Virus record (IMG/VR): IMGVR_UViG_3300045988_138309
Direction: 5' to 3' (one strand)
DNA: 56,765 nucleotides
Source: a virus
Shown: one piece after another, positions 78-55,197 of the stretch
How the letters are laid out: every line of letters starts with the position of its first letter
Position numbering within the stretch: position 1 is the stretch's first letter
The notes under the pieces: generated by a model
The model's input: only the letters and a program-made list of their open reading frames with translations
Database searches by the model: none
What the model was told of the DNA's origin: nothing
Position numbers and translations under genes: made by a program

Positions 78-107
78 ACTGTATGCCGGCATACAGTGGG
101 AGTGCAA
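78..107 (-). promoter_or_regulatory. Promoter of the junction gene, apparently leaderless
   Basis: On the minus strand: TTGCAC (102-107), 18-nt spacer, TACAGT (78-83), 6 nt, then ATG at 71. The palindrome GTATGccggCATAC (81-94) overlaps the -10. Confidence 0.55.
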
Positions 108-418
108 GCCCGGGCCAGGCACGGGGGCGGGCTCCAGCCATGACCGTCCTCACAGGCAGGGACGCCCCTTCGTGCACAGGTAGGGCACTCCTATGGGTAG
201 GCCCCTATACATAAGCATGCACGATGGTGGGGGTCGGGGCCCGCCAGCCGCGCGCTGACCGCGAGCGCGAGCCCGTCCACTCATAGGCATGCCTGATGAG
301 GTGGCACGACCACGAAGGCCCGATCGATCGGCCCGAGCAGCCGGGGCCGAGCCCGCACCCATAGGGTTTCTCGATGTTCACGGCCGGATTGATAGGGAGG
401 GGGTGGGCTAGGCCCCCC

Positions 419-467
419 TATAATCTGCACATATAAGCCACCCTCAACCTTTTGTATGGGAGCATAC
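419..467 (+). promoter_or_regulatory. TATAAT box plus operator-like palindrome over the RBS of the first late-region gene
   Basis: TATAAT at 419-424 with no good -35. GTATGggagCATAC at 454-467 contains the GGGAG Shine-Dalgarno for the ATG at 468. Confidence 0.35.
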
Positions 468-983
468 ATGTCACCTTCAACCCCTTCCCCCGCGTCTGCG
501 GGAGCGCCCGGCAGCGCCTCACGGGCGCTGGTCGACGCGGCTCTGCTCGCCGTGGACTCCCTCCTCCTGACGGGCGCGGCGCTGCGCGTCACCCGCTTCG
601 CCACGACCGACGTCCTGGGCGGCTGGGTCCTGTCGGACCCCCTGCACCGGCTGGCCGAGCGCCTGGAGCCGGCCACCCCGCCCCACCCCTTCGGCTACCT
701 CGCCCCGCCCTCGGCGCCGCTGCACCGCCTGGTCTCAGCCCTGGACTGTCCGTTCTGCGTCGGCACCCAGGCCACCCTCGTCATCGGCCTCGGCATGGCT
801 CTGACCTCGTCCCGCGCCCGCCGCCGCTCCGGCCTCGGCCTGGCCCTGCGAGCCGCCTCGGCCTCCCTCGCGGCGGCCTACGTTGTGGGCCACGTCTCCC
901 ACCGGCTCGACACGCCCGCCGCCACGCCGGCACCTGCCCAGCCTCAGCCCGCCCCCGCACCGACAGCGAAGGACTCGAAGTGA
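468..983 (+). CDS. DUF1360-like integral membrane protein
   Basis: LRVTRF..D and CPFCVGTQ motifs flanked by hydrophobic helices. GGGAG lies 5 nt upstream of ATG 468 (the track lists 456). The stop overlaps the portal start (GTGA). Confidence 0.55.
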   Translation: MSPSTPSPASAGAPGSASRALVDAALLAVDSLLLTGAALRVTRFATTDVLGGWVLSDPLHRLAERLEPATPPHPFGYLAPPSAPLHRLVSALDCPFCVGTQATLVIGLGMALTSSRARRRSGLGLALRAASASLAAAYVVGHVSHRLDTPAATPAPAQPQPAPAPTAKDSK

Positions 984-2776
984 CCGTCCAGAACGTCTCC
1001 AGCCTCGACGCCTACCGCTCCCGCGCCCTGGCCCGCCGCGGCGTCATCGTCCAGCAGGCCCCGGCCCCCCGCACCCTGACCGCCGCGGCCTCCCGACCCA
1101 CGGCGGCCGCTGCCCGTTCCCGCACCACGCCCCCGGCCGGCGCCTCGCGCGGCTCAGCGCTCGGCTCGCGCTCGTGGCAGGCGGAGGCGTGGGCGGCCTA
1201 CGACGAGGTCGGTGAGGAGCGGTTCCTGGCCTCGACCCTGGCCGGCCGCCTGTCCCAAGCCCGCCTCTACGTCCAGCACAAGCCCGCCACCGGCCCGCAC
1301 TCGTCCCTCCGCGACGACGAGACGGATGCGACCGACACCGCCGCCGGCCCCACCGCCCAGCTGGCCGAGGCGGTCCTCGCGGCGCTCGGCGCCAGCCAGC
1401 AGGACCTGGGCCAGATGCTGCAGAGGCTCGCGACGAACCTGTTCGTGGCGGGCGAGGGCTGGCTGGTCGGCGTGCCGCGCCATGTCATCGACGAGGTGTC
1501 CCCGTCCGCGGCGCCGGCGGTCACCGCCCCCTCACCCGATCCCTCCCTCACAGATCTCGTGTGGCGCGTTCTGGCCGTCACGGAGGTCTCCTCCGTCGGC
1601 TCCGACGGGCGCACCGTGCGCCTGAACCTGGGCACCGACGGCTCGGCCCCGGTCGAGGTCTCCGCCGACGAGGTCTACATGGTCCGCGTGTGGCGCCCGC
1701 ACCCCGCCCGCTACTGGGAGGCGGACTCGCCCACGAGAGCCTGCCTGCCGATCCTGCGCGAGCTCATTGGCCTGACCCGCCACATCAGCGCCCAGATCGA
1801 CTCCCGGCTGGCCGGCGCCGGCATCCTGGTCGTGCCCTCCTCGGCCTCGGCCGCGCTGGCCTCGGACGCCGCGGACTCCAACGCCTACGGCGCGCCGGAC
1901 CCGTTCGTGGCCGCGCTCATGGACTCGATGCTGCGGCCGATCGAGAACCGGGACGACGCCTCCGCCGTCGTGCCCCTCGTGGTGACCGTGCCGGACGAGG
2001 CGGCGGACAAGATGAGCCACCTCACGTTCTCCTCGGCCCTGGACTCCGGCGCCCGGGACCTGCGGGACGAGGCGATCCGGCGCCTGGCCCTGGCCCAGGA
2101 CGCCCCGCCGGAGCTGCTGCTCGGCTCGGGCGCCATGAACCACTGGGGCGCGTGGCTGACCCGCGAGGACACGGTGACCACGCACATCGAGCCGGTCCTG
2201 GCCCTCATCTGCGACGCGCTGACCAGCCAGTACCTCCGCCCGGTCCTGCTGAGCGCGGGCCTCTCGGAGGATGAGGTGCGCACCCTCTCGGTCGGCTACG
2301 ACGTGTCGGCCCTCGTGGCGAGACCGAACCGCTCGGAGGAGGCACTGAACCTCCACCGCGCCGGTGCCGTGTCGGACGAGGCGCTGCGCGAGGCGTCCGG
2401 ATTCGACGACTCCGACGCCAAGCCCCTGGACGAGCGGGCCCTCATGCAGGCCCTCGCCATGGTCACCAAGCGTCCGGACCTCATGGGCACGCTCGGCATC
2501 GGCCCACTGACCGAGGAGATCCTCAAGGCCTACAAGGGCGACTATTCGGCCCCGTCGGAGGCCCTTCGCGAGCTCGCCCTGCCGCCGACTCCGCCGGCCC
2601 CCGCAGCCTCTCCCGAGGACGGCCCCTCAGCCCCCAAGCCCGGCCAGGACGGCCCCGGCCGCCCGCCGAGTGGCGCCGACGCGGCCGAGCCGGGTAGGGT
2701 GCCCGGTAGCGAGGCGCCGATCTCATCCGGCGACGCTCGCCCGGAGTCATCCACCACGGCCCCTGCCGGGGCCTGA
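980..2776 (+). CDS. Portal protein
   Basis: GTG 980 is preceded by GAAGGA. The sequence WQAEAWAAYDEVGEERF is portal-like. Lies at the head of the morphogenesis block. The first 176 codons of track ORF 452..2776 are out-of-frame overlap with the membrane gene. Confidence 0.7.
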   Translation: MTVQNVSSLDAYRSRALARRGVIVQQAPAPRTLTAAASRPTAAAARSRTTPPAGASRGSALGSRSWQAEAWAAYDEVGEERFLASTLAGRLSQARLYVQHKPATGPHSSLRDDETDATDTAAGPTAQLAEAVLAALGASQQDLGQMLQRLATNLFVAGEGWLVGVPRHVIDEVSPSAAPAVTAPSPDPSLTDLVWRVLAVTEVSSVGSDGRTVRLNLGTDGSAPVEVSADEVYMVRVWRPHPARYWEADSPTRACLPILRELIGLTRHISAQIDSRLAGAGILVVPSSASAALASDAADSNAYGAPDPFVAALMDSMLRPIENRDDASAVVPLVVTVPDEAADKMSHLTFSSALDSGARDLRDEAIRRLALAQDAPPELLLGSGAMNHWGAWLTREDTVTTHIEPVLALICDALTSQYLRPVLLSAGLSEDEVRTLSVGYDVSALVARPNRSEEALNLHRAGAVSDEALREASGFDDSDAKPLDERALMQALAMVTKRPDLMGTLGIGPLTEEILKAYKGDYSAPSEALRELALPPTPPAPAASPEDGPSAPKPGQDGPGRPPSGADAAEPGRVPGSEAPISSGDARPESSTTAPAGA

Positions 2777-2809
2777 CCGCCCACACCGACCATCACCTCA
2801 GGAGAACCC

Positions 2810-3340
2810 ATGGCACCTCACCCGCCCACAGCCGACGCCGCCCGCGCCTACGCGGCGGCGTCGGCCGCTACCTCCCCCGCCCTCTCCCAGCCGCGCCGCA
2901 ACCCCGACGCTCGCCTGACCGCTCACGGCCGGGACGTTGACGCCACGGCGCTGGTCGCCGTCGTTGACGTCCTGGTCGTCAAGGCGCTGGAGGCCGTCGG
3001 CAAGCGGATCGTGCGCGCCGACAGGGCCCGCTTCAACGCGCTCAAGGGCCGCCCGTTCCACGAGGCTCACGTCCTGTGGCCGACGGACATCATCACCGTG
3101 AGCAAGGCCACGAAGGGCGCGTGGGACGTCGTTCCGGCCCTGCTCGACAACCACGGCTGCCCCGGCGTCGAGTCCGGCCGCGTCGTGACCCTGCTGGACG
3201 CCTACGTCTCCCAGGTCGCCACTCACGGCGTCCCGCACCGCCTGGACCGGCTCGTGACAGCTCTGCGCTACGTCCTGCCGGAGAACGCTCTCATCCGCAC
3301 GCCGTCCCTTAACCGGGCGTCCCTTGAGGAGGTGCGATGA
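2810..3340 (+). CDS. Hypothetical protein in the head module
   Basis: AGGAGAA RBS, high GC3, ATGA-type overlap with the next gene. Confidence 0.6.
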
Positions 3341-5712
3341 CTGGCTCCGCCCCGACCTCCCACGACGTCGATCTCCTGGCCGAGGGCCCAGCGGACTGGG
3401 AGTCCCTCGAGTCGGTGTCGGGCTGGCGCGACGCGATCGAGGACCAGTACCTCGACCTGGCCGAGCCGGTCCTGAACGACTTCCTGCGCCGCGTGCGCGC
3501 CCTGGCCGAGGACGCGCTGGACTCTCCGGTCCTGACGGCGGCCGGTGACCGGGTGCCGAACCAGTTCGCATGGACATCTGTTCGAAGTGCATGGCAGGCC
3601 GCCATACGCGACCTCGTCCGCGACGACCGCGGCCGGCGGCGCCTGCCTCAGTACGCGACCGTGCAGCGCATCCTGGAGGACTCCGGCCTGCCGGTCGCCG
3701 TCTACGAGGACGTGCGCGCCCTCCTCAAGCGCGCCGCCTCCGAGGGCTGGGGCGAGCGGAAGACGAAGATCGAGCTCGGCCGGCTGCTCGGCACCTCCCG
3801 CCGCAAGGGCGAGGCCACGACCGCCTACGCCGCCCGTCTGCGCACCCTGGCCCGCACCGCGGCGACGGCGAACGCCGCCCACCGCATGGCGACCTCGGAC
3901 CTGGCCCGCAGGCGTGGCCGACTGCGCTGGGTCACGGTCCACGACAACCGGGTGCGGCCTACTCACGTCGAGGCCGACGGGCAGGTGCAGGACCTCGGGA
4001 CCCCGTTCCACGTCGGGGACTCCCTCCTGCTCTATCCGGGCGACCCTGCAGGGCCTCCGAAGGAGGTGGCTAACTGCCGCTGCATCCTCATCCCGACCGA
4101 CGCACGCCCCGCCGTCAACCAGGCCGTGAACGTCAAGTACTCAGCCGCAGACATCGAAAGGACAGCCATGAAGCTACGCATTGAGGAGACGGCCCGCCGC
4201 GTGGGCGAGTTCTCCGACCTTCGGGCCGGGGACTCGGAGCCCGTCGGCGACACCGTTCCCGACCCCGCCCCGACGCCTGACGCCCCGGACCCCGCCCCCG
4301 ACGGACGCTGGGAGGGCGTCATCGCCCGCGAGGGGGAGATGACCGGCGACGGCCGCCTCATCGAGGACGGCGCCCTGCGCTGGGACGGCCTCCCCATCCC
4401 GCTGCGTGTGGCGTTCAAGGACGTAGGCGGCCACGACGGCGCCGAGGTCTGCGGCCGTATCGAGACCGTCGAGCGCCGCGACAATGGCGACATCTACGCC
4501 ACCGGGACCTTCGACCTAGGCAGTGCCGTAGGGGTCGAGGCGTACCGGCAGGTCAGCGAGCAGATGTCCAATGGCGTCTCCATCGACACGGACGACGTGA
4601 CTTTCAGGATCATGGCGAAGGCAGACATGCCTGAGGCCGACGTTGCAGATTCCGGCAACGACTCGGACGACGAGCCCGGCCCCGATGGCCGGGTCAAGGT
4701 CGCCGCCATGTCGTCCTCGGACGAGCTGATGGTCATCGAGTCGGCCCGCCTGCGCGCCGCCACCCTCGTGGCCGTCCCCGCCTTCGCCACGGCTCGCGTC
4801 TACGCCGCTGGGCAGGCCCCCGGCACCTCGGAGACCCCTGAGCGCGACGAAAACGTCGATTCTGAGACAGAAATGGCTCGCTCAGCAGATGCCTACCCGC
4901 TGAGCCGCGACGCCCTGACCGCTGCGGCTATTCCTACAGCCCCGCCGGAGGCTTGGTTCAAGGACCCGAACCTGACCGGCCCGACAGCCCTCGTGGTCGA
5001 GGACGACGGTCGCGTCTACGGCCACATCGCGGCCTGGGGCACCTGCCACATCGGGCAGGTCGGGAAGTGCGTCGAGCCGCCCACGTCCCCCTCGAACTAC
5101 GCCTACTTCCGCACCGGAGCGCTGCGCACGGCCGAGGGCACGTCCGTTGCTGTGGGGCATCTCACAATGGGGACAGGTCACGCCGGTCCTCGGGACTCCG
5201 CCAACGCCGCCGCCGAGCACTACGACAACACCGGGACCGTCTTCGCCGACGTCACGGCCGGTGAGGACGCCTACGGCATCTGGGTAGCCGGGGCTCTCCG
5301 CCCCGGCATCACCGCCGAGCAGGTCCGGGTGGCCCGCTCCGCCCCGATCTCCGGCGACTGGCGCACGATTCGTGGAGCTCTCGAGCTCGTCGGCGCCCTG
5401 GCGGTCAATGTCCCCGGCTTCCCGGTGCCCCGCCCACAGGGCCTCCTGGCTTCTGGCGAGGTCCGCTCCCTTCAGGCCTCCGGTGTCGTGGCTCACGACG
5501 ACTCCGCCGCCCGGGCTGCGCACCCCTCGAGCCGGATGGCGGGCGACGGCCTCACGCTCGGGGACATCTCCTACCTGAAGCGCCTGGCGGAGTCCGAGCG
5601 CCGGCGCGACCTTCAGCGCGCGACGGCCGCCGACAGGATGCGTGCCCGAGTCGAGCGCGCCGGTACACTGGCCAAGGCGGCGTCCATGGCGCGCCGTCTC
5701 GGATCCATCTGA
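3337..5712 (+). CDS. MuF-like head morphogenesis domain fused to a capsid maturation protease
   Basis: MuF/SPP1 gp7 signature HDNRVRPTH...PGDP...NCRC. The C-terminal part has [10 protein letters not shown]...C..PP, typical of actinophage prohead proteases. Confidence 0.7.
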
Positions 5713-5971: not shown

Positions 5972-6100
5972 TTCGTCTTATGAGGGCCATCCCACTCATA
6001 GGTGTATCCTTTAAGCCAACGGCATGGCAGCAGGGCCTCGTGTGTACCCCGCTGGGGACGGGAACCCTGCCCAGCAACGAGACACGAAGGACCCCTCAAC

Positions 6101-7978
6101 ATGCGAAAGCACTTCGATATCACCGTCTTCGCCGACCAGGCCGACGACGCTCCGGTCGAGACCTTCGACCTGGAGATCCCCGAGAACCTGTCCGACCTGA
6201 GCGCCGCCGACCTCGGCGACCTGCGCTCCAAGGCCGTTGACGCCTTCCAGACCCTCTACGCCGGCGGCGAGTTCACCGACGAGGACCTTGCCACCCTCGG
6301 CACCCTGACCGACGGCATCGAGGTCCTGTCCGCTGAGATCAGCGCCCGCGAGCAGGCCGCCGCCGAGCGCGCCGCCAAGGCCGCCGAGATGGCCGCCAAG
6401 GTCGGTGCCGACAAGCCGGCCGACGACTCCAAGCCCGCTCCCGCCGATGACGACGAGGACGACGCCCCCACCGATGACTCGGACGACGCGGACGACACTC
6501 CGGCCGAGAAGAAGGCCGACGCCGCTGAGGACGAGGCCGAGCGACAGGCTGCCGAGAAGAAGGCCAAGGCCGCCGCGGCCGACGTCGAGCCCGAGACCGT
6601 CACCGCTGCCGCCCCTCGCGGCCCCATCAAGCTGTCCGGCATCCGTCGGCACGTTCACACCCCCGCACCTGCGATCACTGAGGAGACCTCCGTGGAGGAC
6701 ACCGCTAAGGCCCGCCTGACCGTGGCCGACGTCCCCGGCTTCGCCGCCGACTCCGACGCTTCCTTCGAGGACCTGGCCGTCGCCCTCGACCGCCGCCTCC
6801 AGGGCTTCAACTCCGGCGCCTACGCCGCCGCCGCTCGCGCCGGCCGCGCCATGAGCGAGCGCCACAGCCTCGCCGTCGTGCGCAAGCACTTCGACGAGCG
6901 CGCCACCGTCTCCTCCCCTGAGAGCGCCGACGCCGCCATGGCCTTCGCCGTCAACGAGAAGAACCTCCCCGGCGGCTCCCTCGTCGCGGCCGGCGGCTGG
7001 TGCGCCCCCTCCGAGACCGTCTACGACCTGCTCGAGGACGAGTCCCGCGACGGCCTGATCTCCCTGCCCGAGATCAACGTCACCCGCGGCGGCATCAAGT
7101 TCACCAAGGGCCCCAAGTTCGCCGACCTCTACGCGGCTCCCTCCTTCAACTTCACCGAGGAGGAGGCGAAGGCCGGCAAGTACGCCCCCACCTCCGCCAC
7201 CGACCCGACCAACAAGGTCGGCCCCAAGCCCGTCTACAGCGTGCCCTGCACCGAGTTCGAGGACGTCCGCCTCTCCGCGGCCGGTCTCCACATCCAGGCC
7301 AACCTGCTCCAGCAGCGCGGCTACCCCGAGCTGGTCGCCCGCACCATCCGCGGTGCCCTCGTCGCTCACGAGCACAAGATGAGCGAGCGGATCATCGCCT
7401 CCATGGAGCGCCAGTCCACTGCCGTCTCCATGGACACCGGCCAGATCGGCGCCGCCGCCCCGATCCTGACCGCCATTGAGCTGCAGGTCGAGCACTACCG
7501 CTACGCTCAGCGCCTCTCCCGCTCCACCACCCTGGAGGCGGTCTTCCCCTACTGGGTCCACGGCGCCATCCGCACCGACCTGTCCCGCCGTCAGGGCGTC
7601 GACCTCACCGACGTCAACGACGCCCGCATCGACGCCTGGTTCAAGGCCCGCGGCGTCAACCCCCAGTTCGTCTACGACTGGCAGGCCCTGACCGGCGCGG
7701 CCGGCGACTTCAAGGTCTGGGGCTCCAGCCTGAAGTTCCTGCTCTACTCGGCGGGTACCTTCGTCAAGGGTGGCCAGGACGTCATCACCCTGGACACCGT
7801 CTACGACTCGACCCTGCTCGGCCAGAACGACTACACCGCCCTGTTCACCGAGGAGGGCTACCTGGTCGCCAAGCGCGGTCACGACGCCCGCGTCGTGACG
7901 GTGCCGATCAACCCGAACGGCGGCACCGGCACCGGCATCAAGCTCCTCGCCAACGGCACGGCTGACCCGGCCAAGTGA
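6101..7978 (+). CDS. Major capsid protein with a long acidic/coiled-coil, scaffold-like N-terminal extension
   Basis: ATG 6101 with GAAGGA RBS. The N-terminal roughly 200 aa are rich in A/E/D/K. The C-terminal part has GGWCAPSE and matches my recollection of actinophage capsid proteins. A strong terminator follows. Confidence 0.6.
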   Translation: MRKHFDITVFADQADDAPVETFDLEIPENLSDLSAADLGDLRSKAVDAFQTLYAGGEFTDEDLATLGTLTDGIEVLSAEISAREQAAAERAAKAAEMAAKVGADKPADDSKPAPADDDEDDAPTDDSDDADDTPAEKKADAAEDEAERQAAEKKAKAAAADVEPETVTAAAPRGPIKLSGIRRHVHTPAPAITEETSVEDTAKARLTVADVPGFAADSDASFEDLAVALDRRLQGFNSGAYAAAARAGRAMSERHSLAVVRKHFDERATVSSPESADAAMAFAVNEKNLPGGSLVAAGGWCAPSETVYDLLEDESRDGLISLPEINVTRGGIKFTKGPKFADLYAAPSFNFTEEEAKAGKYAPTSATDPTNKVGPKPVYSVPCTEFEDVRLSAAGLHIQANLLQQRGYPELVARTIRGALVAHEHKMSERIIASMERQSTAVSMDTGQIGAAAPILTAIELQVEHYRYAQRLSRSTTLEAVFPYWVHGAIRTDLSRRQGVDLTDVNDARIDAWFKARGVNPQFVYDWQALTGAAGDFKVWGSSLKFLLYSAGTFVKGGQDVITLDTVYDSTLLGQNDYTALFTEEGYLVAKRGHDARVVTVPINPNGGTGTGIKLLANGTADPAK

Positions 7979-8952: not shown

Positions 8953-9654
8953 ATGGCTAAGACGCACTCATACACACCAGTGCTGGGGAAGCGCATCCGC
9001 GTCACCCCGCTGGACACCTGCGGCAAGTTCGACAAGGCGCAGCACAAGCCGGTGGCTACCTCCGGCTTCGTGTCGGTCAAGCTCGCCGCCGAGGTCGAGG
9101 ACGGCACGGAGATCACGGTCCGCAAGGCCGACGGCTCCCTGTGCGTCAACGAGAAGCAGTCGAACACCTTCAAGTACTTCACGGTCGAGCTCGAGTTCTG
9201 TGGCGTGAACCCCTCCGTCCTGGACATCGTGACCAACGCCACGAAGTACCTGGACCACGCGGGCGACACCGCTGGCTTCAAGGTCGCCTACGGCAAGATC
9301 GAGAAGAAGTTCGCCCTCGAGCTGTGGACCGGCCTGTCCGGCCAGGCGTGTGCCGAGGGCGCTGAGGACGCCAGCGGCTACCTGCTGCTGCCGTTCATCA
9401 CCGCCGGCACGATCGGCGACATCGAGGTCACGGGTGAGGACGCCATCTCGTTCTCCATGACCGGCGCCGTCACCAAGTCCGGCAACGCCTGGGGCACCGG
9501 CCCCTACGATGTGGTCAAGAAGGCCAAGCAGGGCGGAGGCGGCTTCGAGAACGCGAAGCTCCCGACCCCGCTCGACCCGCTCGACCACCTCCTCATGATC
9601 GACACGGCTCTCGCTCCCCCGCCGGACAGCGACCAGCCCGTCACCGTCCCCTGA
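8953..9654 (+). CDS. Putative major tail (tube) protein
   Basis: 233 aa, beta-rich, tail-tube-like pattern. Followed by a nested terminator, as expected for an abundant structural gene. Placement before the neck genes is atypical. Confidence 0.4.
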   Translation: MAKTHSYTPVLGKRIRVTPLDTCGKFDKAQHKPVATSGFVSVKLAAEVEDGTEITVRKADGSLCVNEKQSNTFKYFTVELEFCGVNPSVLDIVTNATKYLDHAGDTAGFKVAYGKIEKKFALELWTGLSGQACAEGAEDASGYLLLPFITAGTIGDIEVTGEDAISFSMTGAVTKSGNAWGTGPYDVVKKAKQGGGGFENAKLPTPLDPLDHLLMIDTALAPPPDSDQPVTVP

Positions 9655-9676
9655 GAAACCCCGTCTCAGAGGCACT

Positions 9677-27752: not shown

Positions 27753-28913
27753 CTACGAGTAGAGCTCCCAGGCGGAGGCGTTCCCGCCTCGAGCCTCGAA
27801 GGTTAAGATGGCCGGCTTGGTGGAGTCCCCGCTGATGTTGGTCCACCAGTCGGATCCCCGGTCTGCCGACGGGCAGGAGATGATCCAGCGAGAGTCACCG
27901 ACCTGGCGCACGCCGAAGTTGTGCCAGTGCCCGTGCACGAGGATCCTGGCGTCGTAGAGGCCACTCCGGCGGCCGAAAGCAAGGTCCCTGAACCAGGTAG
28001 GCACCTTACTCTGGGAGCCCGCCAGATGCCCGTGCGTGAAGCCGATGCGGGTGCCGTCGGCGGCATCCACGGTGACAGCCTCCTCCCACTTCTCAGGGCG
28101 GTGGAAGGTGACGTGCTCGTAGCCCTCCCGGTCCTCGATGATGTCCTCGATGTTCTTCGAGATCATGATGCCGAAGTCGTCATCGGGGGCGTTGGCGCGA
28201 GCGTTCTTGCCGGTCCCGGTCCTCACGGCGCAGTGGTTGGAGGGGACGGCGACGTAGTAGAGGGATGAGCACAGTGGGGCGAACGTTAGCAGGGCCTCGG
28301 CGTAGAGGCGCTGCACGACGCGGATCTGGTCGGTTAGGCTGAGGTCGTTGGTCTGGGCCTGGCTGGCGACGTTCCAGAACCCCTCGGTCGAGTCCCCGAC
28401 GTCGGCGAGAATGATGCGATTGTAGTGGCCTCGGAAGAGGATGTCGTCGGCGATGTCCTTGATCGCCCTGCGCACGAGCCGGACCGTGTCCTCGGTGCCG
28501 CCGCCCTGCCCGGTTTTCCCGGCCTGAACGTCCGCCATGCAGACGACAAGCGTGTCATCCTCGATATTGGCGGACACCTGAGGAATAAGGGGCTCCTGGA
28601 AGACGGGCTCCAGGTCCTCGTAGGAGAGGCGCTTGGCCTCCTCCATCTCCAGGGTGCCGGGGCGGTACTCGATCTTCTCGTAGGAGCCGTCGGCCAGGCG
28701 GACGGTCTTGCCCCGCTTCGTGATGGCGCCGACGGGGAGGTCGAAGAACTCGTCCCGGCTCAGCTCGTCCCGGCCCTTGCGCTTCAGCGCCCGTCTGTGT
28801 CGTCGCACGGTCGCCTCAGAGGTGTTGAACTCCTCGGCCAGGTCGATGTTCGTCTTGCGCTCGCGCTCGGGGAGCGCGTCATTGGCGATGATCGCCTCAT
28901 CCAGCGGGCTCAT
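27753..28913 (-). CDS. N-terminal HTH fused to a calcineurin-like metallophosphoesterase
   Basis: HTH DLAEEFNTSEATVRRHRRAL. Phosphoesterase motifs: ADVGDSTEG, PSNH, THGH, HGHWH. Motif I is atypical (MADVQ). Start chosen at MSPLDEAII with a GGAGA RBS; the track Met at 29015 lies in AT-rich intergenic DNA. Confidence 0.6.
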   Translation of the reverse strand: MSPLDEAIIANDALPERERKTNIDLAEEFNTSEATVRRHRRALKRKGRDELSRDEFFDLPVGAITKRGKTVRLADGSYEKIEYRPGTLEMEEAKRLSYEDLEPVFQEPLIPQVSANIEDDTLVVCMADVQAGKTGQGGGTEDTVRLVRRAIKDIADDILFRGHYNRIILADVGDSTEGFWNVASQAQTNDLSLTDQIRVVQRLYAEALLTFAPLCSSLYYVAVPSNHCAVRTGTGKNARANAPDDDFGIMISKNIEDIIEDREGYEHVTFHRPEKWEEAVTVDAADGTRIGFTHGHLAGSQSKVPTWFRDLAFGRRSGLYDARILVHGHWHNFGVRQVGDSRWIISCPSADRGSDWWTNISGDSTKPAILTFEARGGNASAWELYS

Positions 28914-33379: not shown

Positions 33380-33871
33380 ATGCGCAACGCGCTGCGCACC
33401 TACCCCGCCCGCAAGGCCACTATCCAGGGCCGCCCCGCCGTCCAGGTCCGGGACACGAAGAACGAGATCGAGTACTGGGTCGAGATCACCGACGAGCCGG
33501 ACGCCGGCGGCCGCTACCACGTCGTGAACCTCCTGTGCCGCCCAGACGCGGGCGTTCGCTTCCCCGATAGTGTCCCCCACAGGACCCTCTGTGAAATCGC
33601 CGCAAACGTGCTTGAGAGGGCCGAGAAGCCTGCACGGGGTGGCAACCAGTACCGAGGGGCCCCAGTCGAGACCCTGCGCGCGATGGTCGAGGAGGGCAAG
33701 ACCCGCACCGACATCGCCAAGGAGCTTGGCCGCAGCGTCTACACCGTGGACTCGTGGCTGCGCCGGGCTCGCCGCATCGACCCGACCTTCCCAGGCACGA
33801 TGACGAAGGGCGGGGCGCGACGCCCGGCTCGCAACCGGACCCCCTACCGAAGGGCTCCGAAGGGCGCCTGA
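33380..33871 (+). CDS. HTH DNA-binding protein with a basic C-terminus
   Basis: The segment TRTDIAKELGRSVYTVDSWLRRAR is HTH-like. GGAGACACC RBS. Confidence 0.55.
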   Translation: MRNALRTYPARKATIQGRPAVQVRDTKNEIEYWVEITDEPDAGGRYHVVNLLCRPDAGVRFPDSVPHRTLCEIAANVLERAEKPARGGNQYRGAPVETLRAMVEEGKTRTDIAKELGRSVYTVDSWLRRARRIDPTFPGTMTKGGARRPARNRTPYRRAPKGA

Positions 33872-33916: not shown

Positions 33917-34217
33917 GCGTGCCCTAGATCACGTCCCCGCCGTCCGTCCACATCCTGAGACAGGTGTCCGCATAGTGAGAAAGTGAGGGCGGTCACGGCG
34001 TTTTAAGCACGGTTGGAAGGGTAACTAATACTTATGTCAAAATGTGTATGCCAAGTTACAAGTTCCCCCGTACTCGGGCGTGTCGCACTACAACTTCCGC
34101 GTGTCGGGCCCCCTTACTGGGATTAATCAGTATGCCTGCATACTATTCCCAGATATGGGTGTGATGAATGTCTAACTTTTAAACCCCGATTCCGTGAACA
34201 AATTCACCAATTGGCTA

Positions 34218-35808: not shown

Positions 35809-35850
35809 TTGAGGTTCCACTACCCTTCGAGTAGTGTATGCGGGGCATAC
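35809..35850 (+). promoter_or_regulatory. Promoter with an overlapping palindromic operator
   Basis: TTGAGG, 17-nt spacer, TAGTGT. GTATGcggggCATAC (35836-35850) covers the -10 and +1. GGAACCTCTTGAGGTTCC (35801-35818) overlaps the -35. Confidence 0.45.
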
Positions 35851-35869: not shown

Positions 35870-36214
35870 ATGCCCCGCCCCAGCAAGGACAAGCTCGTTC
35901 CCTACGTGGACGACCGCCCAGACCTCGACCAGCGGTTCGCGCCGTTGGATGCCCCCACATCGATCGACTTCGGCCGGAAGCCGGGAAACCCTTCCAGTCC
36001 TCGAAAGTCGGTGACCTTCACGATGAGGGAGGCTACCTGGGAGAGAGTCGTTCGCCGGGCAGAGCGCCAGGGCCTGCAGCCTAGGATCGTCCTAGCACGC
36101 CTCATGGAGGCGTACGGGAATCGCGAGCTCGACCTCGCACCTCACCCCTCGGGAATCAAGGTGACTCCCCACCGGACCACCTTCACCAATCCAGACAACC
36201 CCTCGAACCGGTGA
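35870..36214 (+). CDS. Small DNA-binding protein candidate (ribbon-helix-helix-like)
   Basis: ATG 35870 after AAAGGAG. The segment KSVTFTMREATWERVVRRAERQGL...IVLARLMEAY is RHH-like. Confidence 0.4.
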   Translation: MPRPSKDKLVPYVDDRPDLDQRFAPLDAPTSIDFGRKPGNPSSPRKSVTFTMREATWERVVRRAERQGLQPRIVLARLMEAYGNRELDLAPHPSGIKVTPHRTTFTNPDNPSNR

Positions 36215-39130: not shown

Positions 39131-39160
39131 TTGCATTGTGGCATACGCGCTGCGTAGTCT
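39131..39160 (+). promoter_or_regulatory. Member of the conserved promoter family
   Basis: gGGCTTGCAT, 18-nt spacer, TAGTCT. Confidence 0.5.
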
Positions 39161-47467: not shown

Positions 47468-49159
47468 ATGCCCCGCGTGAAGAAACCGATGGAGCCGTGG
47501 GAGATGACTCCGGCCCAGCTGGAGGAGGAGTTGGAGGCCCTCATCAAGCGCCAGGCGTGGCTGGAGAACCAGCCGAAGTGCGCCCGCCCGTCGTGCGACG
47601 GCAAGCCTCACGCCGGGGCGCCGTACCCCCATGACCCGACCTACCGCCAGGCCTCCAGCCCAGTGGAGAGCGCGCAGCAGCTCGATGAGGCCTATGCCGG
47701 CCGGCCCCACATCCAGTACCTCTCCGACCGCCTGACTGAGGCCGTGCGCGCCGTCGAGGCCGGCGAGAATCGCTACATGACGATCTCCATGCCGCCGCGC
47801 ATGGGCAAGTCCACGCTGACCTCGATCAACCTGCCGATCTGGCTGCTGCGTCAGCATCCGGACTGGAAGATCGGCCTCATCTCCCACTCGCCGCAGCTCG
47901 CCACGGCTTGGGGCCGCCAGGTCCGGCGCTTCGTCGAGGAGGACGGCGAGAAGTGGGGACTCAAGATCGCGTCCGACGCCGGCGCCGTGAGCGAGTGGCA
48001 GACGACTCGTGGCGGCGGAATCGTGTCTAGGTCGGCACCCGGCCAGTCGATCACGGGTCTCGGCTTCAAGGTCATGCTGATGGACGACGTCGTGAAGGAC
48101 TTCGCCGACGCTCACAGTGAGTCCAAGCGTGAGGCCATCTGGGACTGGTGGCAGGCCAACGCCGTGACGCGTCTGGAGCCGCCGTTCCTCTGCATCGCTA
48201 TCGCCACCCGCTGGCACGAGGACGACTTCATTGGCCGCCTCCTGAACCCGGCCAAGAACCCCGACGCCGATAAGTGGGAGAACGTGATCTTCCCGGCCAT
48301 CGCCGAGGAGGACGACCCGCTCGGGCGAGAGCCGGGCGACCCGCTCTACAGCCCCCTCGTCGAGGAGACTCGTGAGGAGGCGCTGGAGCGCTGGGACTCC
48401 CTGAAGCGCTCGGTCGGCTCGTACATGTGGGAGGCCTTGTACCAGCAGCACCCAACTCCGGCGGACGGATCGATCTTCAACCTCGGCTGGCTGCGGTTCT
48501 GGACGACCGACCCGTCCAAGGTCAAGGACGGCGACGACTCGGTCATCCTCCTGCCCCGCGAGCGGTTGGAGCGCGGTCAGTGGCTCGACTCGTGGGACCT
48601 CACCTTCAAGGGCAGCTCGACGTCGGACTACGCCGTCGGCCAGCGCTGGTGTAGGCAAGGTCCCGACCGGTTCCTGATCGCACAGCAGCGCGGCCAGTGG
48701 TCCTTCACCCAGACGCTGGAGAAGATGCTGCGCTGGTGCAATGCCGGTGACCTAGATGACAAGGCCTCCCCAGGAGGGTCGTCCGTTCATCAGCGCCTCG
48801 TGGAGGACGCCGCCAACGGTACGGCGGCCATCGACGTGCTGCGCAAGAAAGTCGCCGGCATCAAGCCGGTCAAGCCCCGCTCGTCCAAGGAGGTCCGGGC
48901 ACGCGCCGTGACGCCGGAGATCGAGTCCGGCAACGTCTATCTGCCTCACCCCTCCGACCCTGGCAACGGCTGGGTGAACGAGCTCATCTCCGAGATGCGG
49001 GCGTTCCCGTCGGGCCGCCACGACGACCAGGTGGATGCGCTGAGCATGGGGCTGCTCGGCCTACGTGACGCGGGGCAGGCATCCCTGTTCGTCCCGCGGG
49101 GGACGATCCGGCGCGCTGTGAGCGGTCTCTCACTGGCTGGCACGGTTCCGCGGTTCTGA
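47468..49159 (+). CDS. terL: Terminase large subunit
   Basis: Walker A region PPRMGKST; WHEDDFIGRL; nuclease motif GRHDDQVDALSM. Confidence 0.9.
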   Translation: MPRVKKPMEPWEMTPAQLEEELEALIKRQAWLENQPKCARPSCDGKPHAGAPYPHDPTYRQASSPVESAQQLDEAYAGRPHIQYLSDRLTEAVRAVEAGENRYMTISMPPRMGKSTLTSINLPIWLLRQHPDWKIGLISHSPQLATAWGRQVRRFVEEDGEKWGLKIASDAGAVSEWQTTRGGGIVSRSAPGQSITGLGFKVMLMDDVVKDFADAHSESKREAIWDWWQANAVTRLEPPFLCIAIATRWHEDDFIGRLLNPAKNPDADKWENVIFPAIAEEDDPLGREPGDPLYSPLVEETREEALERWDSLKRSVGSYMWEALYQQHPTPADGSIFNLGWLRFWTTDPSKVKDGDDSVILLPRERLERGQWLDSWDLTFKGSSTSDYAVGQRWCRQGPDRFLIAQQRGQWSFTQTLEKMLRWCNAGDLDDKASPGGSSVHQRLVEDAANGTAAIDVLRKKVAGIKPVKPRSSKEVRARAVTPEIESGNVYLPHPSDPGNGWVNELISEMRAFPSGRHDDQVDALSMGLLGLRDAGQASLFVPRGTIRRAVSGLSLAGTVPRF

Positions 49160-49163: not shown

Positions 49164-49208
49164 TTGCATCTCCTGAGGGGTGGACGTATGATTACATACG
49201 TCCACCCC
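49164..49208 (+). promoter_or_regulatory. Promoter embedded in a 14-bp-stem hairpin directly after terL
   Basis: GGCTTGCAT, 17-nt spacer, TATGAT. Hairpin GGGGTGGACGTATG atta CATACGTCCACCCC (49177-49208) contains GTATGattaCATAC. Confidence 0.5.
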
Positions 49209-49227: not shown

Positions 49228-49713
49228 ATGAATCGGCATGAACTGATCACCCGTGCCCGGATGGTCCAGGTGTGGGAGGAGGGGTGCGGGAGCTTCCCCT
49301 CGGAGCGGACTTCCTGGCCGAAGTCCGGGCCGGACTATCACCTCTCCTGGATGCTGCACCATGCCTCCCGGCTCATTGACCGGAATGCCGTAGAGCCGGA
49401 GATTGTACGGGGGTGGTTGTGGAAGATATCTAACGCCGCCTCCCGATTGCTGCCTGAGGGCTCCGACGTCCCCGTCCTCGCCCTGGAGGAGTACTCCCGA
49501 GCCGCGCGGAAGCACCCCGGCATGACTCTGGAGTGCGACGGCCACACCGACGCCACGCGCCTGTTCGCCCTCGTGGAGGAGATCGGTGAGGTCGCGGCGT
49601 GCCTGACCTACGACAACGACGCCGAGACCGGCCATGGGTCGGACCTAGAGTCCGAGGTGATCCAGGTCATCGCCCTGGCCCTGGCCTGGGCTACCCGCTA
49701 CCTGGACGACTGA
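49228..49713 (+). CDS. MazG-like nucleotide pyrophosphohydrolase
   Basis: LVEEIGEVAA ... ESEVIQVIALAL matches the EExxE...E/D helical pattern. Confidence 0.55.
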   Translation: MNRHELITRARMVQVWEEGCGSFPSERTSWPKSGPDYHLSWMLHHASRLIDRNAVEPEIVRGWLWKISNAASRLLPEGSDVPVLALEEYSRAARKHPGMTLECDGHTDATRLFALVEEIGEVAACLTYDNDAETGHGSDLESEVIQVIALALAWATRYLDD

Positions 49714-49730: not shown

Positions 49731-50219
49731 ATGACATCCATCAACGACGTTGCAGACCTGCCCAAGCTCCTGGAGGCGTGGGCCAGCGGCAAGGGATACC
49801 GAGAGTCCTTCGGGATCGACGCCGAGCGCTCGATGGCCGAGGACCTGCGCAAGCTGCTCTCTCTGACCGTCCAGCAGGCGAAGGCCCTGGAGGACTCTCA
49901 GGAGCGTGCCAACGCCTTGGAGCAACGCCTCCCGACCTCTCAGACCGACGACCTGGAGCCTGAGTTCAGGGTTGAGTCTATGCCCGCCGATCCTCTAGAA
50001 GAGGCTGCACGACTCGACCGCAAGGCTCGTCGGGACGCTAAGCTCGCTCGCGCCGCCCTTCAGCAGGAGGTCCTGGCCGCCTACTCACGCGGCGTGTCGA
50101 AGTCGGCTCTGAGCACGGTCTCCGGCATGACCCGGCAGACCGTGGACAAGGTCCTCGGCCAGTGGAAGCGCAAGCCGCCGAAGATCGACGACGGTGAGAC
50201 GCCTATAACACTGATCTGA
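49731..50219 (+). CDS. Coiled-coil protein with a C-terminal HTH
   Basis: The C-terminus GVSKSALSTVSGMTRQTVDKVL is HTH-like. Confidence 0.45.
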   Translation: MTSINDVADLPKLLEAWASGKGYRESFGIDAERSMAEDLRKLLSLTVQQAKALEDSQERANALEQRLPTSQTDDLEPEFRVESMPADPLEEAARLDRKARRDAKLARAALQQEVLAAYSRGVSKSALSTVSGMTRQTVDKVLGQWKRKPPKIDDGETPITLI

Positions 50220-50230
50220 TCTCTGCGGGC

Positions 50231-50259
50231 TTGCTCTGGGACGTATGACGGCATACACT
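50231..50259 (+). promoter_or_regulatory. Member of the conserved promoter family, with operator
   Basis: GGCTTGCTC, 17-nt spacer, TACACT. GTATGacggCATAC at 50243-50256. Confidence 0.5.
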
Positions 50260-50298
50260 TAGGGCAAGCCCGCACCGGCAACTACCTAGCGAGGAAAC

Positions 50299-50571
50299 AT
50301 GAGCACCGAGACCTCACCGACCAAGACAACCTGGACCCGCGTCTTCCAGCACCCTCAGGCGCGAATCAAGCCGCTCGATGCGGGCACCCTGCACGAGGCC
50401 AAGACGTGCCTCGTCTACGAGGACGGCTCCGCCGTCGCCCAGCTGAAGCGTTGCGGGCAGCGCTGCTGGGGCGTCTACCCGACAGGCATGACGATCCCCG
50501 TTGCGTTCGGAGCCTCCGCCCTGGAGGCCGTGACGGCGTGGATGAGCGCCCGGGATGGGGGCGAGCGATGA
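50299..50571 (+). CDS. Hypothetical protein
   Basis: GAGGAAAC RBS; high GC3. Confidence 0.5.
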   Translation: MSTETSPTKTTWTRVFQHPQARIKPLDAGTLHEAKTCLVYEDGSAVAQLKRCGQRCWGVYPTGMTIPVAFGASALEAVTAWMSARDGGER

Positions 50572-52690: not shown

Positions 52691-52720
52691 TTGCTGGCGG
52701 GGCGTATGCGTGCATACGCT
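52691..52720 (+). promoter_or_regulatory. Promoter plus operator driving a leaderless gene
   Basis: GGCTTGCTG, 18-nt spacer, TACGCT, 6 nt, then ATG 52727. GTATGcgtgCATAC at 52704-52717. Confidence 0.55.
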
Positions 52721-52726: not shown

Positions 52727-53197
52727 ATGAGAACGAACCGCCCCGCCCGCCAGACCGCCCGCCCCGCCCACCGCGCACCCCGCCCCACCCTTGCCTCGAT
52801 GTTCGTAGCCGCCACCGCAGCGGCGGCCATCGCCATCCTCGTTACCGTCGCCGTGGTCGCCCTGGCCTGCTACCTGGCCGGCACCTCGTCAGCCACCGCC
52901 CTCCGAGGCGGCCACTCCTCGCAGGCCTCGACCGTCTCGGCCTCCCCGCTGATCGCCCCTACTGCCGGTCGAGGGGCGGACTCCGCCACCTGCAGGCACG
53001 CTCCGCGCTCGCCCCGCTGCATGCGGGAGGGAGGCACCGCCGCCGTCGTGCGCGACCACGGTGTGGCCCGCCCGGCCGATGGCGGCGACGACCAGACCGT
53101 CCTGCTGGGCGGGGAGGACGTCCGGCCGGCCGAGGTGCCCAGCCGCGTGCCCGGCCGCGGCGGGTGGGTGAGCGAGCTCGGCCCGTCGCGGGCCTGA
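52727..53197 (+). CDS. Single-pass membrane protein, apparently leaderless
   Basis: TM helix MFVAATAAAAIAILVTVAVVALACYL. No Shine-Dalgarno. The ATG lies 7 nt after the -10. Confidence 0.5.
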   Translation: MRTNRPARQTARPAHRAPRPTLASMFVAATAAAAIAILVTVAVVALACYLAGTSSATALRGGHSSQASTVSASPLIAPTAGRGADSATCRHAPRSPRCMREGGTAAVVRDHGVARPADGGDDQTVLLGGEDVRPAEVPSRVPGRGGWVSELGPSRA

Positions 53198-53228: not shown

Positions 53229-53258
53229 TTGCACCCAGATCGTATGCCGGCATACGCT
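53229..53258 (+). promoter_or_regulatory. Promoter plus operator driving a leaderless gene
   Basis: ACTTGCAC, 18-nt spacer, TACGCT, 6 nt, then ATG 53265. GTATGccggCATAC at 53242-53255. Confidence 0.55.
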
Positions 53259-53948: not shown

Positions 53949-53972
53949 CGGGTGCTAGGCCGTCTCAGGGGC

Positions 53973-54509
53973 TTACAGGGCCGTGGAGAGGCGCTGCAGG
54001 GCGAGCCGGGCCGAGGGGGCGTGGGCCGCGGCCAGCGCGTAGCGGTCCTGCCAGCGGGTGAGCTGGTGCGGGTGCACGGCCCGAAGGGGGCTGTCCGGGG
54101 CCGGGCGCCGCCCGGCCGGGACGTCGTCCCAGGAGATCGGGACCGCGAACCACGTCCGTACGGACAGGCCGCCGTCGGCCAGCAGCTCCTCGGGGATCCC
54201 GTCGAGGGCGTGAGGGTCCTCTCGACGGACCGTGGACGCGGGGGCGGCGGCCCAGGCCGGGACCTGCTCGATCCGGGCGATGGAGTGGCCGCCGATCTCG
54301 CCCCACGTCCGGACCCGCCCCTCGCCCTGGACTTTGTAGGCGGGGGACGGGGAGGCCACGACGCTGACCGGCTGCCCGGCCAGAGGGTGCGGAGAGCCGT
54401 TAGGCAGGGTGGCCGGGTGCAGGGCCGGCTCGTCGTCGAAGGCGTGGTCGATGACTCGGTAGGTGGTTCGAGGGCTGTCGGTCTGGCTGAGGGAGTAGCG
54501 GTTGCTCAT
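53973..54509 (-). CDS. Hypothetical 178-aa protein, apparently leaderless
   Basis: Start MSNRYSLSQ at complement 54507-54509, 7 nt downstream of the -10. No Shine-Dalgarno. Confidence 0.5.
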   Translation of the reverse strand: MSNRYSLSQTDSPRTTYRVIDHAFDDEPALHPATLPNGSPHPLAGQPVSVVASPSPAYKVQGEGRVRTWGEIGGHSIARIEQVPAWAAAPASTVRREDPHALDGIPEELLADGGLSVRTWFAVPISWDDVPAGRRPAPDSPLRAVHPHQLTRWQDRYALAAAHAPSARLALQRLSTAL

Positions 54510-54516
54510 GGGTAGC

Positions 54517-54545
54517 AGTATGCACGCATACGCCGTCAGCTGCAA
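54517..54545 (-). promoter_or_regulatory. Promoter plus operator for the reverse-strand leaderless gene
   Basis: On the minus strand: GGCTTGCAG, 17-nt spacer, CATACT, 7 nt, then ATG. GTATGcacgCATAC at 54518-54531. Confidence 0.5.
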
Positions 54546-54586
54546 GCCGTCGAGGCGGGTCTGAGGGAGCTTGGGCCGGCTGCGCG

Positions 54587-55197
54587 AACCTGGGAGAAAC
54601 CTGGGAACGTAGTGTGGCGCCAGCCACAGGTCCTTATTGTATCTATGGCTTCCCCTCCCCTACGGGGAGGGGAAGCCTATTAGAGAATATGTAACTTAGC
54701 ATACAACCGCGCCATTCCAACGGAAAGTACGTATGCCCTGCATACATTAGGTACCGGCAAGTGTATGCTAAGTTACGTGTGACCCAGATCTCATGCAACC
54801 AGGCATACGTCACTTTGAGAAATTAATTTGAGTGACGGCATTCACATACCTGGAGGTACAGCGGGGGAGAAACCTGGGAGAACCCTGAGAAACCTGGGAG
54901 AACCCTGGGAACCGCTACGGCCCTGAGAGGGTCCGAGCTGGGCGGGCGGGTCCGGCCGAGCGGGGTCGGGCAGCCCTCTCGGAGAGGTCGGGAACCTGTA
55001 CCGGACCGGCCCGGGGCGTCTACGTACCGCCCCGCCGCCGGCGGTCGGACCGAGGAGAACGGAGCAGAGAGGCAGGCCGGACGGAAAGCGGCGCAGCGCT
55101 GGCGGGGCTGGCGGAATACCGCGGAAAACTGGGACGATGTATGCCGTCATAACGGACTTTTCGTTGCAATCCCAACGGTCGAGAAAACCTGGGACGG
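54587..55197 (+). repeat. Iteron-like AACC(C)TGGGA repeats, including a perfect 20-bp tandem duplication at 54867-54906
   Basis: Copies at about 54587, 54598, 54871, 54881, 54891, 54901, 55125 and 55185. All are in one orientation with local spacing of 10-11 bp. Confidence 0.75.
54691..54776. promoter_or_regulatory. Composite operator: two inverted 14-mers flanking a central palindrome
   Basis: GTAACTTAGCATAC (54691-54704), GTATGccctgCATAC (54731-54745) and GTATGCTAAGTTAC (54763-54776), in an AT-rich patch. Confidence 0.5.

Follow-up and report, generated by a model that had tools for sequence, protein, structure and literature searches.

A recurrent promoter-borne dyad, GTATG-N4/5-CATAC, as putative operator of a phage-encoded regulator in an uncultivated high-GC siphovirus

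Introduction

What reads a short palindrome that recurs ten times on a single phage genome? The question is raised by IMG/VR record IMGVR_UViG_3300045988_138309, a stretch of 56,765 nt (the window, below) which is the genome of an uncultivated, high-GC siphovirus (GC content 63-74%) and which carries the dyad GTATG-N4/5-CATAC in eight copies with a 4-nt centre (N4) and two with a 5-nt centre (N5). A first-pass annotation of this DNA had proposed that one dimeric DNA-binding protein uses the dyad to control the early and accessory promoters. Shuffled-sequence counts and conservation favour the operator part of that proposal, the word 'early' having been a supposition about the promoters. Judging from sequence, we consider it reasonably likely that a single dimeric regulator, encoded by the phage and probably a repressor, has GTATG(C)-N4/5-(G)CATAC as its operator.

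Occurrence of the dyad

All ten exact sites and the near-site listed by the first-pass annotation were found again at the same places (Table 1; sites are named here by their first position). Dinucleotide-preserving shuffles of the window, which served as the null model, gave an expectation of 0.01 sites for each of the two spacings, with a maximum of one N4 site in any shuffle; the first-pass annotation had estimated well below one site per 57 kb and had suggested such a count. When up to two mismatches were allowed, 21 matches were obtained against 7.2 expected, and the excess of two-mismatch matches includes a degenerate form, GTATGC(T/C)AAGTTAC, present in three copies (34046, 54691 and 54763). 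The exact sites (10/10) and the near-site all lie in non-coding DNA, as had been claimed, and this fraction makes up 13.5% of the window in our own gene map; arithmetic from base composition puts the expectation in non-coding DNA alone at ~0.003 sites. Enumeration of all palindromes with 5-bp arms and gaps of 0-8 nt ranked GTATG-N4 as the commonest A/T-containing dyad, both in the window and in its sole annotated relative, Dulem virus 38 (L001).

C and G predominate at positions 5 and 8, which makes GTATGC the effective half-site and brings the motif nearer to GTATGC-N2/3-GCATAC. Outside the full sites, eight of nine GCATAC half-sites are in non-coding DNA; by our own reasoning, bias in GC content at third codon positions (GC3) is expected to explain part of the scarcity of GCATAC in coding DNA. 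A literature search for an operator of the form GTATG...CATAC returned only unrelated systems, such as the KfrA direct repeats, and we know of no actinobacterial regulator with the operator GTATG-N4/5-CATAC.

Conservation across the phage group

Dulem virus 38, obtained from lemur saliva, is syntenic with the window and shares with it, at the nucleotide level, ~8% of a 4-kb query (33000-37000). At equivalent positions it carries eight N4 sites, six of them exact and two with one mismatch, as well as two N5 sites; these lie past the terminase gene, ahead of the cassette genes and of the portal gene, and within the central region. Over 100 related contigs came from IMG/VR, ENA and Logan, many of them from human oral or HMP-type samples. 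Terminase-centred loci amounting to ~1 Mb yielded 245 N4 and 26 N5 sites; every one is downstream of the terminase gene, and the replication genes upstream of it, of which each locus contributes at most 10 kb, have none. Counts of sites inside open reading frames (ORFs) are uninformative in the relatives, because GC-rich stop-to-stop frames extend far upstream of the real starts.

Gene-anchored counts, in which sequences were aligned on a neighbouring gene and not selected on the motif, avoid circularity. Past the terminase stop codon, an exact site is present in 63 of 65 unique sequences, the exceptions being L060, with a degenerate copy, and L075, whose terminase is 51% identical. Homologues of 35870-36214, 69-100% identical as proteins, are preceded by an N5 site in 45 of 48 unique sequences, and sites likewise stand upstream of 52727 (14/16), 53265 (14/14) and 50299 (34/42 unique sequences). 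Two central-region sites recur in nearly all loci spanning that region. At the 35870 promoter the centre is lineage-specific (CGGGG, CCATG or AGAGT) and the -35 box and spacer diverge, while the arms and the N5 spacing are fixed; generally, the arms and the site-specific spacing are conserved and the centre and flanks drift. The first-pass annotation had staked its reading on conservation at equivalent positions, and the sites are indeed kept in diverged relatives. No site was found in the more distant phages L075, L120 and L189-L196. The region from terminase to portal is mosaic among the relatives, and site spacing and gene content vary within it.

Promoter architecture at the sites

Promoters were read from the flanks by the consensus of the actinobacterial sigma-A type (TTGnnn, 16-19 nt, TAnnnT) and from a logo of the relatives. 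The consensus is present at eight of the ten window sites. With an arm supplying the -10 box (TTGnnn-16..19-TACnnT), it occurs in 129 of 258 unique N4 contexts across all the genomes and in 7 of 258 when the flanks are shuffled, and the logo reads GGCTTGC-N9-GTATGC..GCATAC-AcT-N6-ATG. This agrees with the description in the first-pass annotation of sites overlapping a -10-like hexamer, the predicted transcription start or, in one case, the ribosome-binding site (RBS), a description sound as to placement which overlooked that two sites cap hairpins and that several genes are probably leaderless.

In the largest class the -10 hexamer, TAC(A/G)CT, takes the last three bases of the right arm, behind a spacer of 18 nt. 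At four such sites, 52704, 53242, 81 and 54518 (the last two on the minus strand), an ATG follows 5-6 nt past the hexamer with no Shine-Dalgarno sequence (SD), the arrangement usual for leaderless actinobacterial mRNAs. The predicted leaderless starts are ATG 52727 of a 156-aa gene, ATG 53265 of a 118-aa gene, ATG 71..69 of a 290-aa ORF that crosses the assembly junction, and ATG 54509..54507 of gene 53973-54509. Site 50243 has the same right-arm core with a leader that contains an SD. At 49186 (TTGCAT-17-TATGAT), upstream of genes 49228-49713 and 49731-50219, the -10 box falls within the left arm instead, and at the N5 site 35836 (TTGAGG-17-TAGTGT) it abuts that arm, so that the dyad spans ~-8 to +7, the SD of the downstream gene following at 35859-35864. 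The remaining class is that of site 454, in which the centre, GGAG, is the SD of the portal gene (ATG 468); a TATAAT hexamer (419-424) lies 30 nt upstream, and the site is identical in Dulem virus 38 (L001 8716), again upstream of the portal gene.

The dyad centre ranges from ~-16 to ~+35 relative to the predicted start, a variability that suits steric repression or a roadblock and not activation. Divergent back-to-back promoters were considered as the source of the symmetry and ruled out, because the mirror image of the conserved -10 T is not itself conserved (logo position -3 is not A). The left arm falls within the promoter spacer, a stretch that sigma factors do not contact in a base-specific way; together with the lack of a mirrored -10 box, this calls for a two-fold symmetric reader. 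The geometry is not that of MerR-type regulation either, as the spacer is 17-18 nt and the dyad, centred at ~-16, overlaps the -10 box, and no MerR-family domain was found among the ~30 window proteins scanned against Pfam.

Conservation in the leaderless class extends into the coding region (AGCC-ATG-AGC-AC at 63-71, 52727-52735 and 54501-54509, and in relatives), so that many unrelated cassette proteins start with Met-Ser-Thr or similar. Either a constraint of leaderless initiation or recombinational spread of promoter-plus-first-codon modules is possible. Two further sigma-A-like promoters lie inside the replication module (TTGCAT-18-TAGTCT, 39131-39160; TTGCAC-18-TACAGT, 44209-44238), each with a single GCATAC half-site in the spacer and no full dyad; the half-sites may be weak or vestigial operators, or the promoters may be internal ones free of control.

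Hairpins at two of the sites

Sites 49186 and 50243 form the tips of hairpins that both begin just past stop codons, the first at 49177-49208 (14-bp arms, -28.2 kcal/mol, z -6.8) and the second at 50225-50273 (-35.4 kcal/mol, z -7.0), 6 nt past the stop codon of 49731-50219. Among 22 distinct relatives, the post-terminase hairpin shows compensatory changes in 8 of 11 outer stem pairs, a covariation score reached by none of 500 shuffles, whereas the five arm pairs of the dyad never vary. The outer stem is thus selected for pairing and the arms for sequence, the latter being what recognition of the DNA by a protein would predict. Even in L197 the outer stem, different in sequence, retains its complementarity.

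The outer stem is probably a terminator or 3'-end hairpin, and the two elements probably combine terminator, promoter and operator. Neither hairpin is followed by a T-run (U-tract in the RNA), and a terminator scan called neither. The other eight sites are not stable hairpins; at 454, 35836 and 54731 the bare 5-bp stem was, as RNA, no stabler than shuffles. Neither the sites nor the ORF-poor regions matched an RNA family in Rfam and tRNA scans.

Candidate binders

Four proteins had been put forward in the first-pass annotation as possible binders, and they fared differently. The product of 49731-50219 fits best and is, tentatively, the most likely binder of the dyad on sequence grounds. Its predicted model has two long helices followed by the helices of a helix-turn-helix (HTH; residues 124-131 and 135-147), with an overall AlphaFold confidence (pLDDT) of 68 that rises to ~80 in the C-terminal HTH part; a Foldseek search of this model against PDB gave nothing below E 0.3, the weak matches all being HTH domains. 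The recognition segment reads G(M/L)(T/G)RQT, and RQT is invariant in 38 of 38 HTH variants, among which overall identity falls to 53%. The family comprises 8 representative clusters among 1.84 billion and is confined to the motif-bearing phage group, where the gene is always downstream of the best-conserved site; the distant phages that have no motif also have no such gene. The deepest-branching member (L197; 45% identical, 60% GC) lies behind TTGTAG-17-TATGCT with an N5 dyad, GTATG-CTGGT-CATAC, which is the only such dyad in its 2.9-kb contig. For the most distant lineage (P0135), no contig beyond 2.9 kb was found in the viral and metagenome collections or the protein database. Operator positions 5 and 8 showed no correlation with the HTH variants. 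As the gene lies behind a site-bearing promoter, negative autoregulation is predicted. The neighbouring gene 49228-49713, predicted to be co-transcribed with it, has a conserved C-terminal half with an EEIGE-type motif which, by eye, resembles MazG-like nucleotide pyrophosphohydrolases; it had no Pfam, PHROG or NCBIfam match.

The product of 35870-36214 is probably ribbon-helix-helix (RHH)-like. Its residues 46-82 aligned with six RHH sequences at an hhalign probability of 62%, which is indicative only, and AlphaFold, in a poor model (pLDDT 47), places two helices there at low confidence; no Pfam, NCBIfam or PDB match was found. All 13 clusters of this family are at least 68% identical, and the predicted DNA-facing residues (47, 49 and 51) are S-T-T, R-V-H, T-S-T or V-K-R according to lineage. 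That they vary while the arms stay identical argues against this protein reading the arms and disfavours the candidate; one may speculate that it reads the lineage-specific centre of its own N5 site.

For 33380-33871, with at-threshold matches to Sigma70_r4_2 and HTH_23, a different target is suggested by repeats of its own. Five of the seven genome copies of GGGAATA/TATTCCC fall within 1 kb around this gene (33190-33339 and 34144-34150), possibly as a second regulatory motif that the protein itself might recognise. Two inverted GGGAATA/TATTCCC pairs, 32-33 nt apart, lie upstream of 33380, adjoined by GAGAC-N4-GTCTC-like palindromes at 33162, 33239 and 33273. The fourth protein, listed by the first-pass annotation as 27753..28913, was dropped, because the ORF 27753-29015 encodes an exonuclease (phrog_284, E 1e-55) and its winged-HTH match was sub-threshold only. 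PDB sequence searches were empty.

How the dyad may be read

Varied placement, with invariant arms around a free centre, fits an operator better than a promoter element. The proposed dimer would set one reading head on each arm, the arm centres being 9 or 10 bp apart, about one helical turn, and when bound would occlude the -10 box or the start site at nine promoters. On the portal gene, where the site lies on the RBS ~30 nt past TATAAT, binding would act as a roadblock. The regulator would control nearly all host-type (sigma-A-like) promoters of the phage: those of the replication operon beginning at 35870, of the gene cassettes between terminase and portal, several of them leaderless, and of its own operon, with negative autoregulation as the outcome.

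Several points weigh against this. The promoters and leaderless starts are read from consensus only, and a generic promoter scan at a stricter threshold called none. If the protein shuts off early genes alone, it is awkward that one repressor site covers the RBS of portal, a late gene; nor does the model explain in detail the N5 spacing or the sites that are degenerate or only half present (34046, 54691, 54763, 39141 and 44224). The structure models of the first two candidates are weak, with no significant fold match. Co-occurrence with the motif cannot separate the three candidates and was abandoned as a test of binding, all three being universal in the motif-bearing group and absent from L075, L120 and L189-L196. 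One lineage (L121/L122/L127) has no left arm at its 35870 promoter, with no obvious consequence; as a natural case of motif loss it was dropped, since only that one arm is gone and the contig retains five N4 sites. Finally, the reader could be a host factor.

A host-encoded transcription factor recruited to the phage promoters, for example one coupling infection to host physiology, would make a phage reader superfluous. The host sigma-A type of the promoters, the putative role of the phage candidates and the want of characterised relatives for the phage HTH proteins would all suit it, and yet we hold it unlikely: the motif is confined to one phage group and absent from distant relatives whose hosts are probably of a similar high-GC kind, an orphan HTH family limited to that same group accompanies it, and the literature search gave no known operator. 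Equally hard to favour is a positive promoter-specificity element for a phage activator or RNA-polymerase appropriator such as 33380-33871. The dyad does sit on nearly every recognisable promoter, in a fixed register with the -35 and -10 boxes in the largest class, where the 18-nt spacer is slightly long, and 33380-33871 does have a sigma-70 region-4-like HTH. Activators, however, need a fixed geometry, whereas the dyad moves by class between the -10 box, the start and the RBS; it overlaps the -10 box instead of lying upstream, in an arrangement unlike that of MerR; the sigma-A-like promoters 39131 and 44209 carry only a half-site; and 33380 is flanked by distinct repeats of its own.

That the dyad acts as an RNA-level hairpin in termination, processing, stability or translational control, with no DNA-binding protein, is suggested by the two very stable, co-varying hairpins after stop codons and by the SD within the loop at 454. 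This we judge very improbable, given that the 5-bp stem is no stabler than shuffles at three sites and that the arms have no compensatory changes when the adjacent stem has them. Moreover, at the leaderless sites and at those of the 35836 class the dyad precedes or straddles the predicted start, so that its own promoter would not transcribe all of it; the flanks, which are orientation-specific, are promoter elements; and the strict sequence conservation points to recognition as DNA. Least credible of all is that the promoter-plus-dyad segments serve mainly as recombination linkers for cassette swapping, the dyad having no regulatory reader. Mosaicism between terminase and portal is in keeping with it, as are cassettes bounded by ~50 nt of shared sequence that reaches the first codons (ATGAGCAC); it leaves unexplained the dyad symmetry, the invariant arms with variable centre and the conserved sites in the non-mosaic central region and on the portal RBS, and any use as a linker would be a by-product of conserved regulatory DNA.

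Three more far-reaching readings can be imagined, for which we see only an outside chance. An integrase-less phage might silence every promoter through one orphan HTH protein and one dyad, a stoperator-like global control leading to a non-integrated carrier or pseudolysogenic state. The dyad might be read both as a double-stranded operator and as the tip of an RNA or cruciform hairpin. Or terminator, promoter and operator might form one portable cassette that insulates and co-regulates mosaic genes.

Sites and repeats without an obvious promoter

Sites 34130, 54731 and the near-site 55139 have no obvious promoter attached. Site 34130 has an imperfect CTGGGA/TCCCAG extension in its flanks and is kept at the equivalent position in most relatives. 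In the middle of the same 2-kb ORF-poor region (33872-35869), in which no Rfam match was found, is a long GC-rich inverted repeat at 34264-34345 (core arms 34279-34297 and 34311-34329). Of the related IMG/VR contigs, at least ten stop in this repeat, 410-470 nt past the 33380 homologue (L087, L089, L091, L095, L096, L101, L105, L106, L107 and L112). Possible identities for the repeat are a replication origin, a physical end of the genome and a breakpoint of assembly or coverage.

Site 54731, in a 1.4-kb non-coding hub, lies between the arms of a perfect 15-nt inverted repeat (54691-54705 and 54762-54776), and these arms carry the degenerate sites GTAACTTAGCATAC and GTATGCTAAGTTAC. A 34-nt inverted repeat, with site 54731 in its left arm (54714-54747) and near-site 55139 in its right arm, brackets 390 bp of AACCTGGGAGAA repeats; an imperfect site in Dulem virus 38, GTATGCCGTCATAT, resembles the near-site. 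The direct repeats AACCTGGGAGAA and the related AAACCTGGGA occur in this hub at 54587-54608, 54860-54912, 55120-55136 and 55180-55196, are iteron-like and could be part of an origin or packaging site. Elsewhere, gene 29115 has upstream of it a promoter-like TTGTCC-17-TACAGT (29042-29088), after which comes GTAGGCCGAGATAC, the dyad with two mismatches, and a similar variant, GTAGGCCCCTATAC, is found at 197-210; both could be chance matches or low-affinity sites.

Genome context

The terminal 55 nt of the window are identical (1-55 and 56711-56765), a k-mer overlap which indicates a complete, circularly assembled contig of ~56.7 kb with an arbitrary start point. Genes were identified by PHROG and Pfam searches (Table 1). 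No integrase, partition protein or CI-like immunity repressor was found among the window proteins scanned, and the phage is for this reason probably lytic, as far as gene content can tell. No homologue of 49731-50219 or of the endolysin was found in 185,579 bacterial genomes; our guess is that the host is a high-GC oral actinobacterium.

The portal ORF of the window encodes 769 aa, with the portal domain from about residue 207. The annotation of Dulem virus 38 makes the N-terminal part a gene of its own, of 155 aa and upstream of the portal gene (L001 8718-9185, the portal gene itself being 9314-10984), which reflects either a fusion or split or a difference in annotation. The 290-aa minus-strand ORF served by site 81 runs across the assembly junction to 55909, with a GC3 of 0.93 and one predicted transmembrane helix; ORF lists blind to the junction show only its 190-aa tail (55909-56481). 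ARAGORN called a permuted 'tmRNA*' at 55519-56003 that partly overlaps this ORF (from 55909), where Rfam was empty, and the call is probably a false positive.

Table 1. Dyad sites, their promoters, candidate binders and identified genes in the window; a dot, no strand given
Feature	Position	Strand	Remarks
N4 site GTATGCCGGCATAC	81..94	minus	on sigma-A-like promoter
Promoter of site 81	-35 TTGCAC 107..102; -10 TACAGT 83..78	minus	-10 overlaps one arm
N4 site GTATGGGAGCATAC	454..467	plus	upstream of portal gene
N4 site GTATGCCTGCATAC	34130..34143	.	ORF-poor 33.9-35.9 kb region
Degenerate site GTATGCCAAGTTAC	34046..34059	.	2 mismatches, same form as 54763
N5 site GTATGCGGGGCATAC	35836..35850	plus	promoter of gene 35870-36214
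Promoter of site 35836	-35 TTGAGG 35809-35814; -10 TAGTGT 35832-35837	plus	-10 abuts left arm
N4 site GTATGATTACATAC	49186..49199	plus	27 nt past terminase stop codon
Promoter of site 49186	-35 TTGCAT 49164-49169; -10 TATGAT 49187-49192	plus	-10 inside left arm
N4 site GTATGACGGCATAC	50243..50256	plus	upstream of gene 50299-50571
Promoter of site 50243	-35 TTGCTC 50231-50236; -10 TACACT 50254-50259	plus	-10 overlaps right arm
N4 site GTATGCGTGCATAC	52704..52717	plus	-35 TTGCTG 52691-52696; -10 TACGCT 52715-52720
N4 site GTATGCCGGCATAC	53242..53255	plus	-35 TTGCAC 53229-53234; -10 TACGCT 53253-53258
N4 site GTATGCACGCATAC	54518..54531	minus	-35 TTGCAG 54545..54540; weak -10 TACTGC 54520..54515
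N5 site GTATGCCCTGCATAC	54731..54745	.	1.4-kb non-coding hub between minus-strand genes
Near-site GTATGCCGTCATAA	55139..55152	.	1 mismatch
Favoured candidate binder	49731..50219	plus	162-aa orphan, C-terminal helix-turn-helix
Second candidate binder	35870..36214	plus	114 aa, ribbon-helix-helix-like core at residues 46-82, site-bearing promoter
Third candidate binder	33380..33871	plus	163 aa, HTH_23 / sigma-70 region-4-like HTH at residues 96-133
Portal	468-2776		PHROG/Pfam
Minor head protein	3337-5712		PHROG/Pfam
Major capsid	6002-7978		PHROG/Pfam
Tape measure	12375-15572		PHROG/Pfam
Holin	23029-23304		PHROG/Pfam
Exonuclease	27753-29015	minus	PHROG/Pfam
Family-A DNA polymerase	30151-33159		PHROG/Pfam
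Primase-polymerase	36279-38735		PHROG/Pfam
SNF2 helicase	41338-43008		PHROG/Pfam
PD-(D/E)XK nuclease	43014-44198		PHROG/Pfam
AAA_24	44272-45132		PHROG/Pfam
DUF669	45165-45701		PHROG/Pfam
Large terminase	47468-49159		PHROG/Pfam

Significance

Human oral metagenomes are rich in this phage group, which lacks cultured members and has almost no annotated regulation. For annotating it, the dyad offers a map of promoters and transcription units, including leaderless genes, and a testable regulon of ~10 operators with a shortlist of three small proteins. If 49731-50219 does bind the dyad, it would represent a new family of phage regulators, and the compact pair of operator and repressor could be used in high-GC Actinobacteria. 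The combined hairpin, promoter and operator elements exemplify mosaic phage cassettes that bring their control signals with them.

Relation to described systems

The operators of lambda Cro/CI and of LacI-type regulators share with the present sites the dyad form, half-site centres about one helical turn apart and overlap with the core promoter, and autoregulation of the regulator's operon is likewise likely here. There is no sequence or detectable protein homology to these systems, however, the candidate being an orphan with its HTH C-terminal, behind long helices, and the target promoters in one genome are unusually numerous. In the Streptomyces phage phiC31, a temperate high-GC actinophage, conserved inverted repeats (CIRs) of ~17 bp recur many times between the genes of the early region and are bound by the c repressor; the early promoters of this phage are not known to be sigma-A-like, and the repeat sequence is unrelated to the dyad described here. 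No repressor of a known family was found among the window proteins scanned.

In Cluster A mycobacteriophages (L5, Bxb1, TipsytheTRex), an immunity repressor acts on an operator and on stoperators across the genome, some of these sites being at promoters and others beyond them, where elongation is blocked (PMC9283540, PMC6550527). The likeness lies in a single phage protein, as proposed here, with many short sites, and in the portal site downstream of a promoter, which could block elongation. Cluster A stoperators are asymmetric 13-14-bp sequences read by a monomer in an orientation-dependent manner, whereas the present motif is a perfect dyad; and those phages are temperate, with an immunity repressor and an integrase or partition system, unlike what the protein scans returned here.

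The closest published parallel, by analogy, is the 17-bp dyad repeat of Cluster O mycobacteriophages, TGTTCGGNNNCCGAACA, with more than 30 copies dispersed over the genome, many of which fall within ORFs or at their ends (Cresawn et al., 2015, PMC4351075). Both repeats have many copies, invariant arms and a variable centre, with predicted SigA-like promoters alongside, some of them leaderless. The Cluster O repeat has 7-bp arms and a 3-bp centre, against 5-6-bp arms, a 4-5-bp centre and a different sequence here, where the ~10 copies are all non-coding and mostly on core promoter elements. What sets the present dyad apart is thus its sequence, its strict association with core promoters, its fusion to hairpins at two sites and its occurrence in a phage in which no lysogeny genes were found; the concept itself is already known from other actinophage repeat systems, and the dyad extends known biology and overturns nothing.

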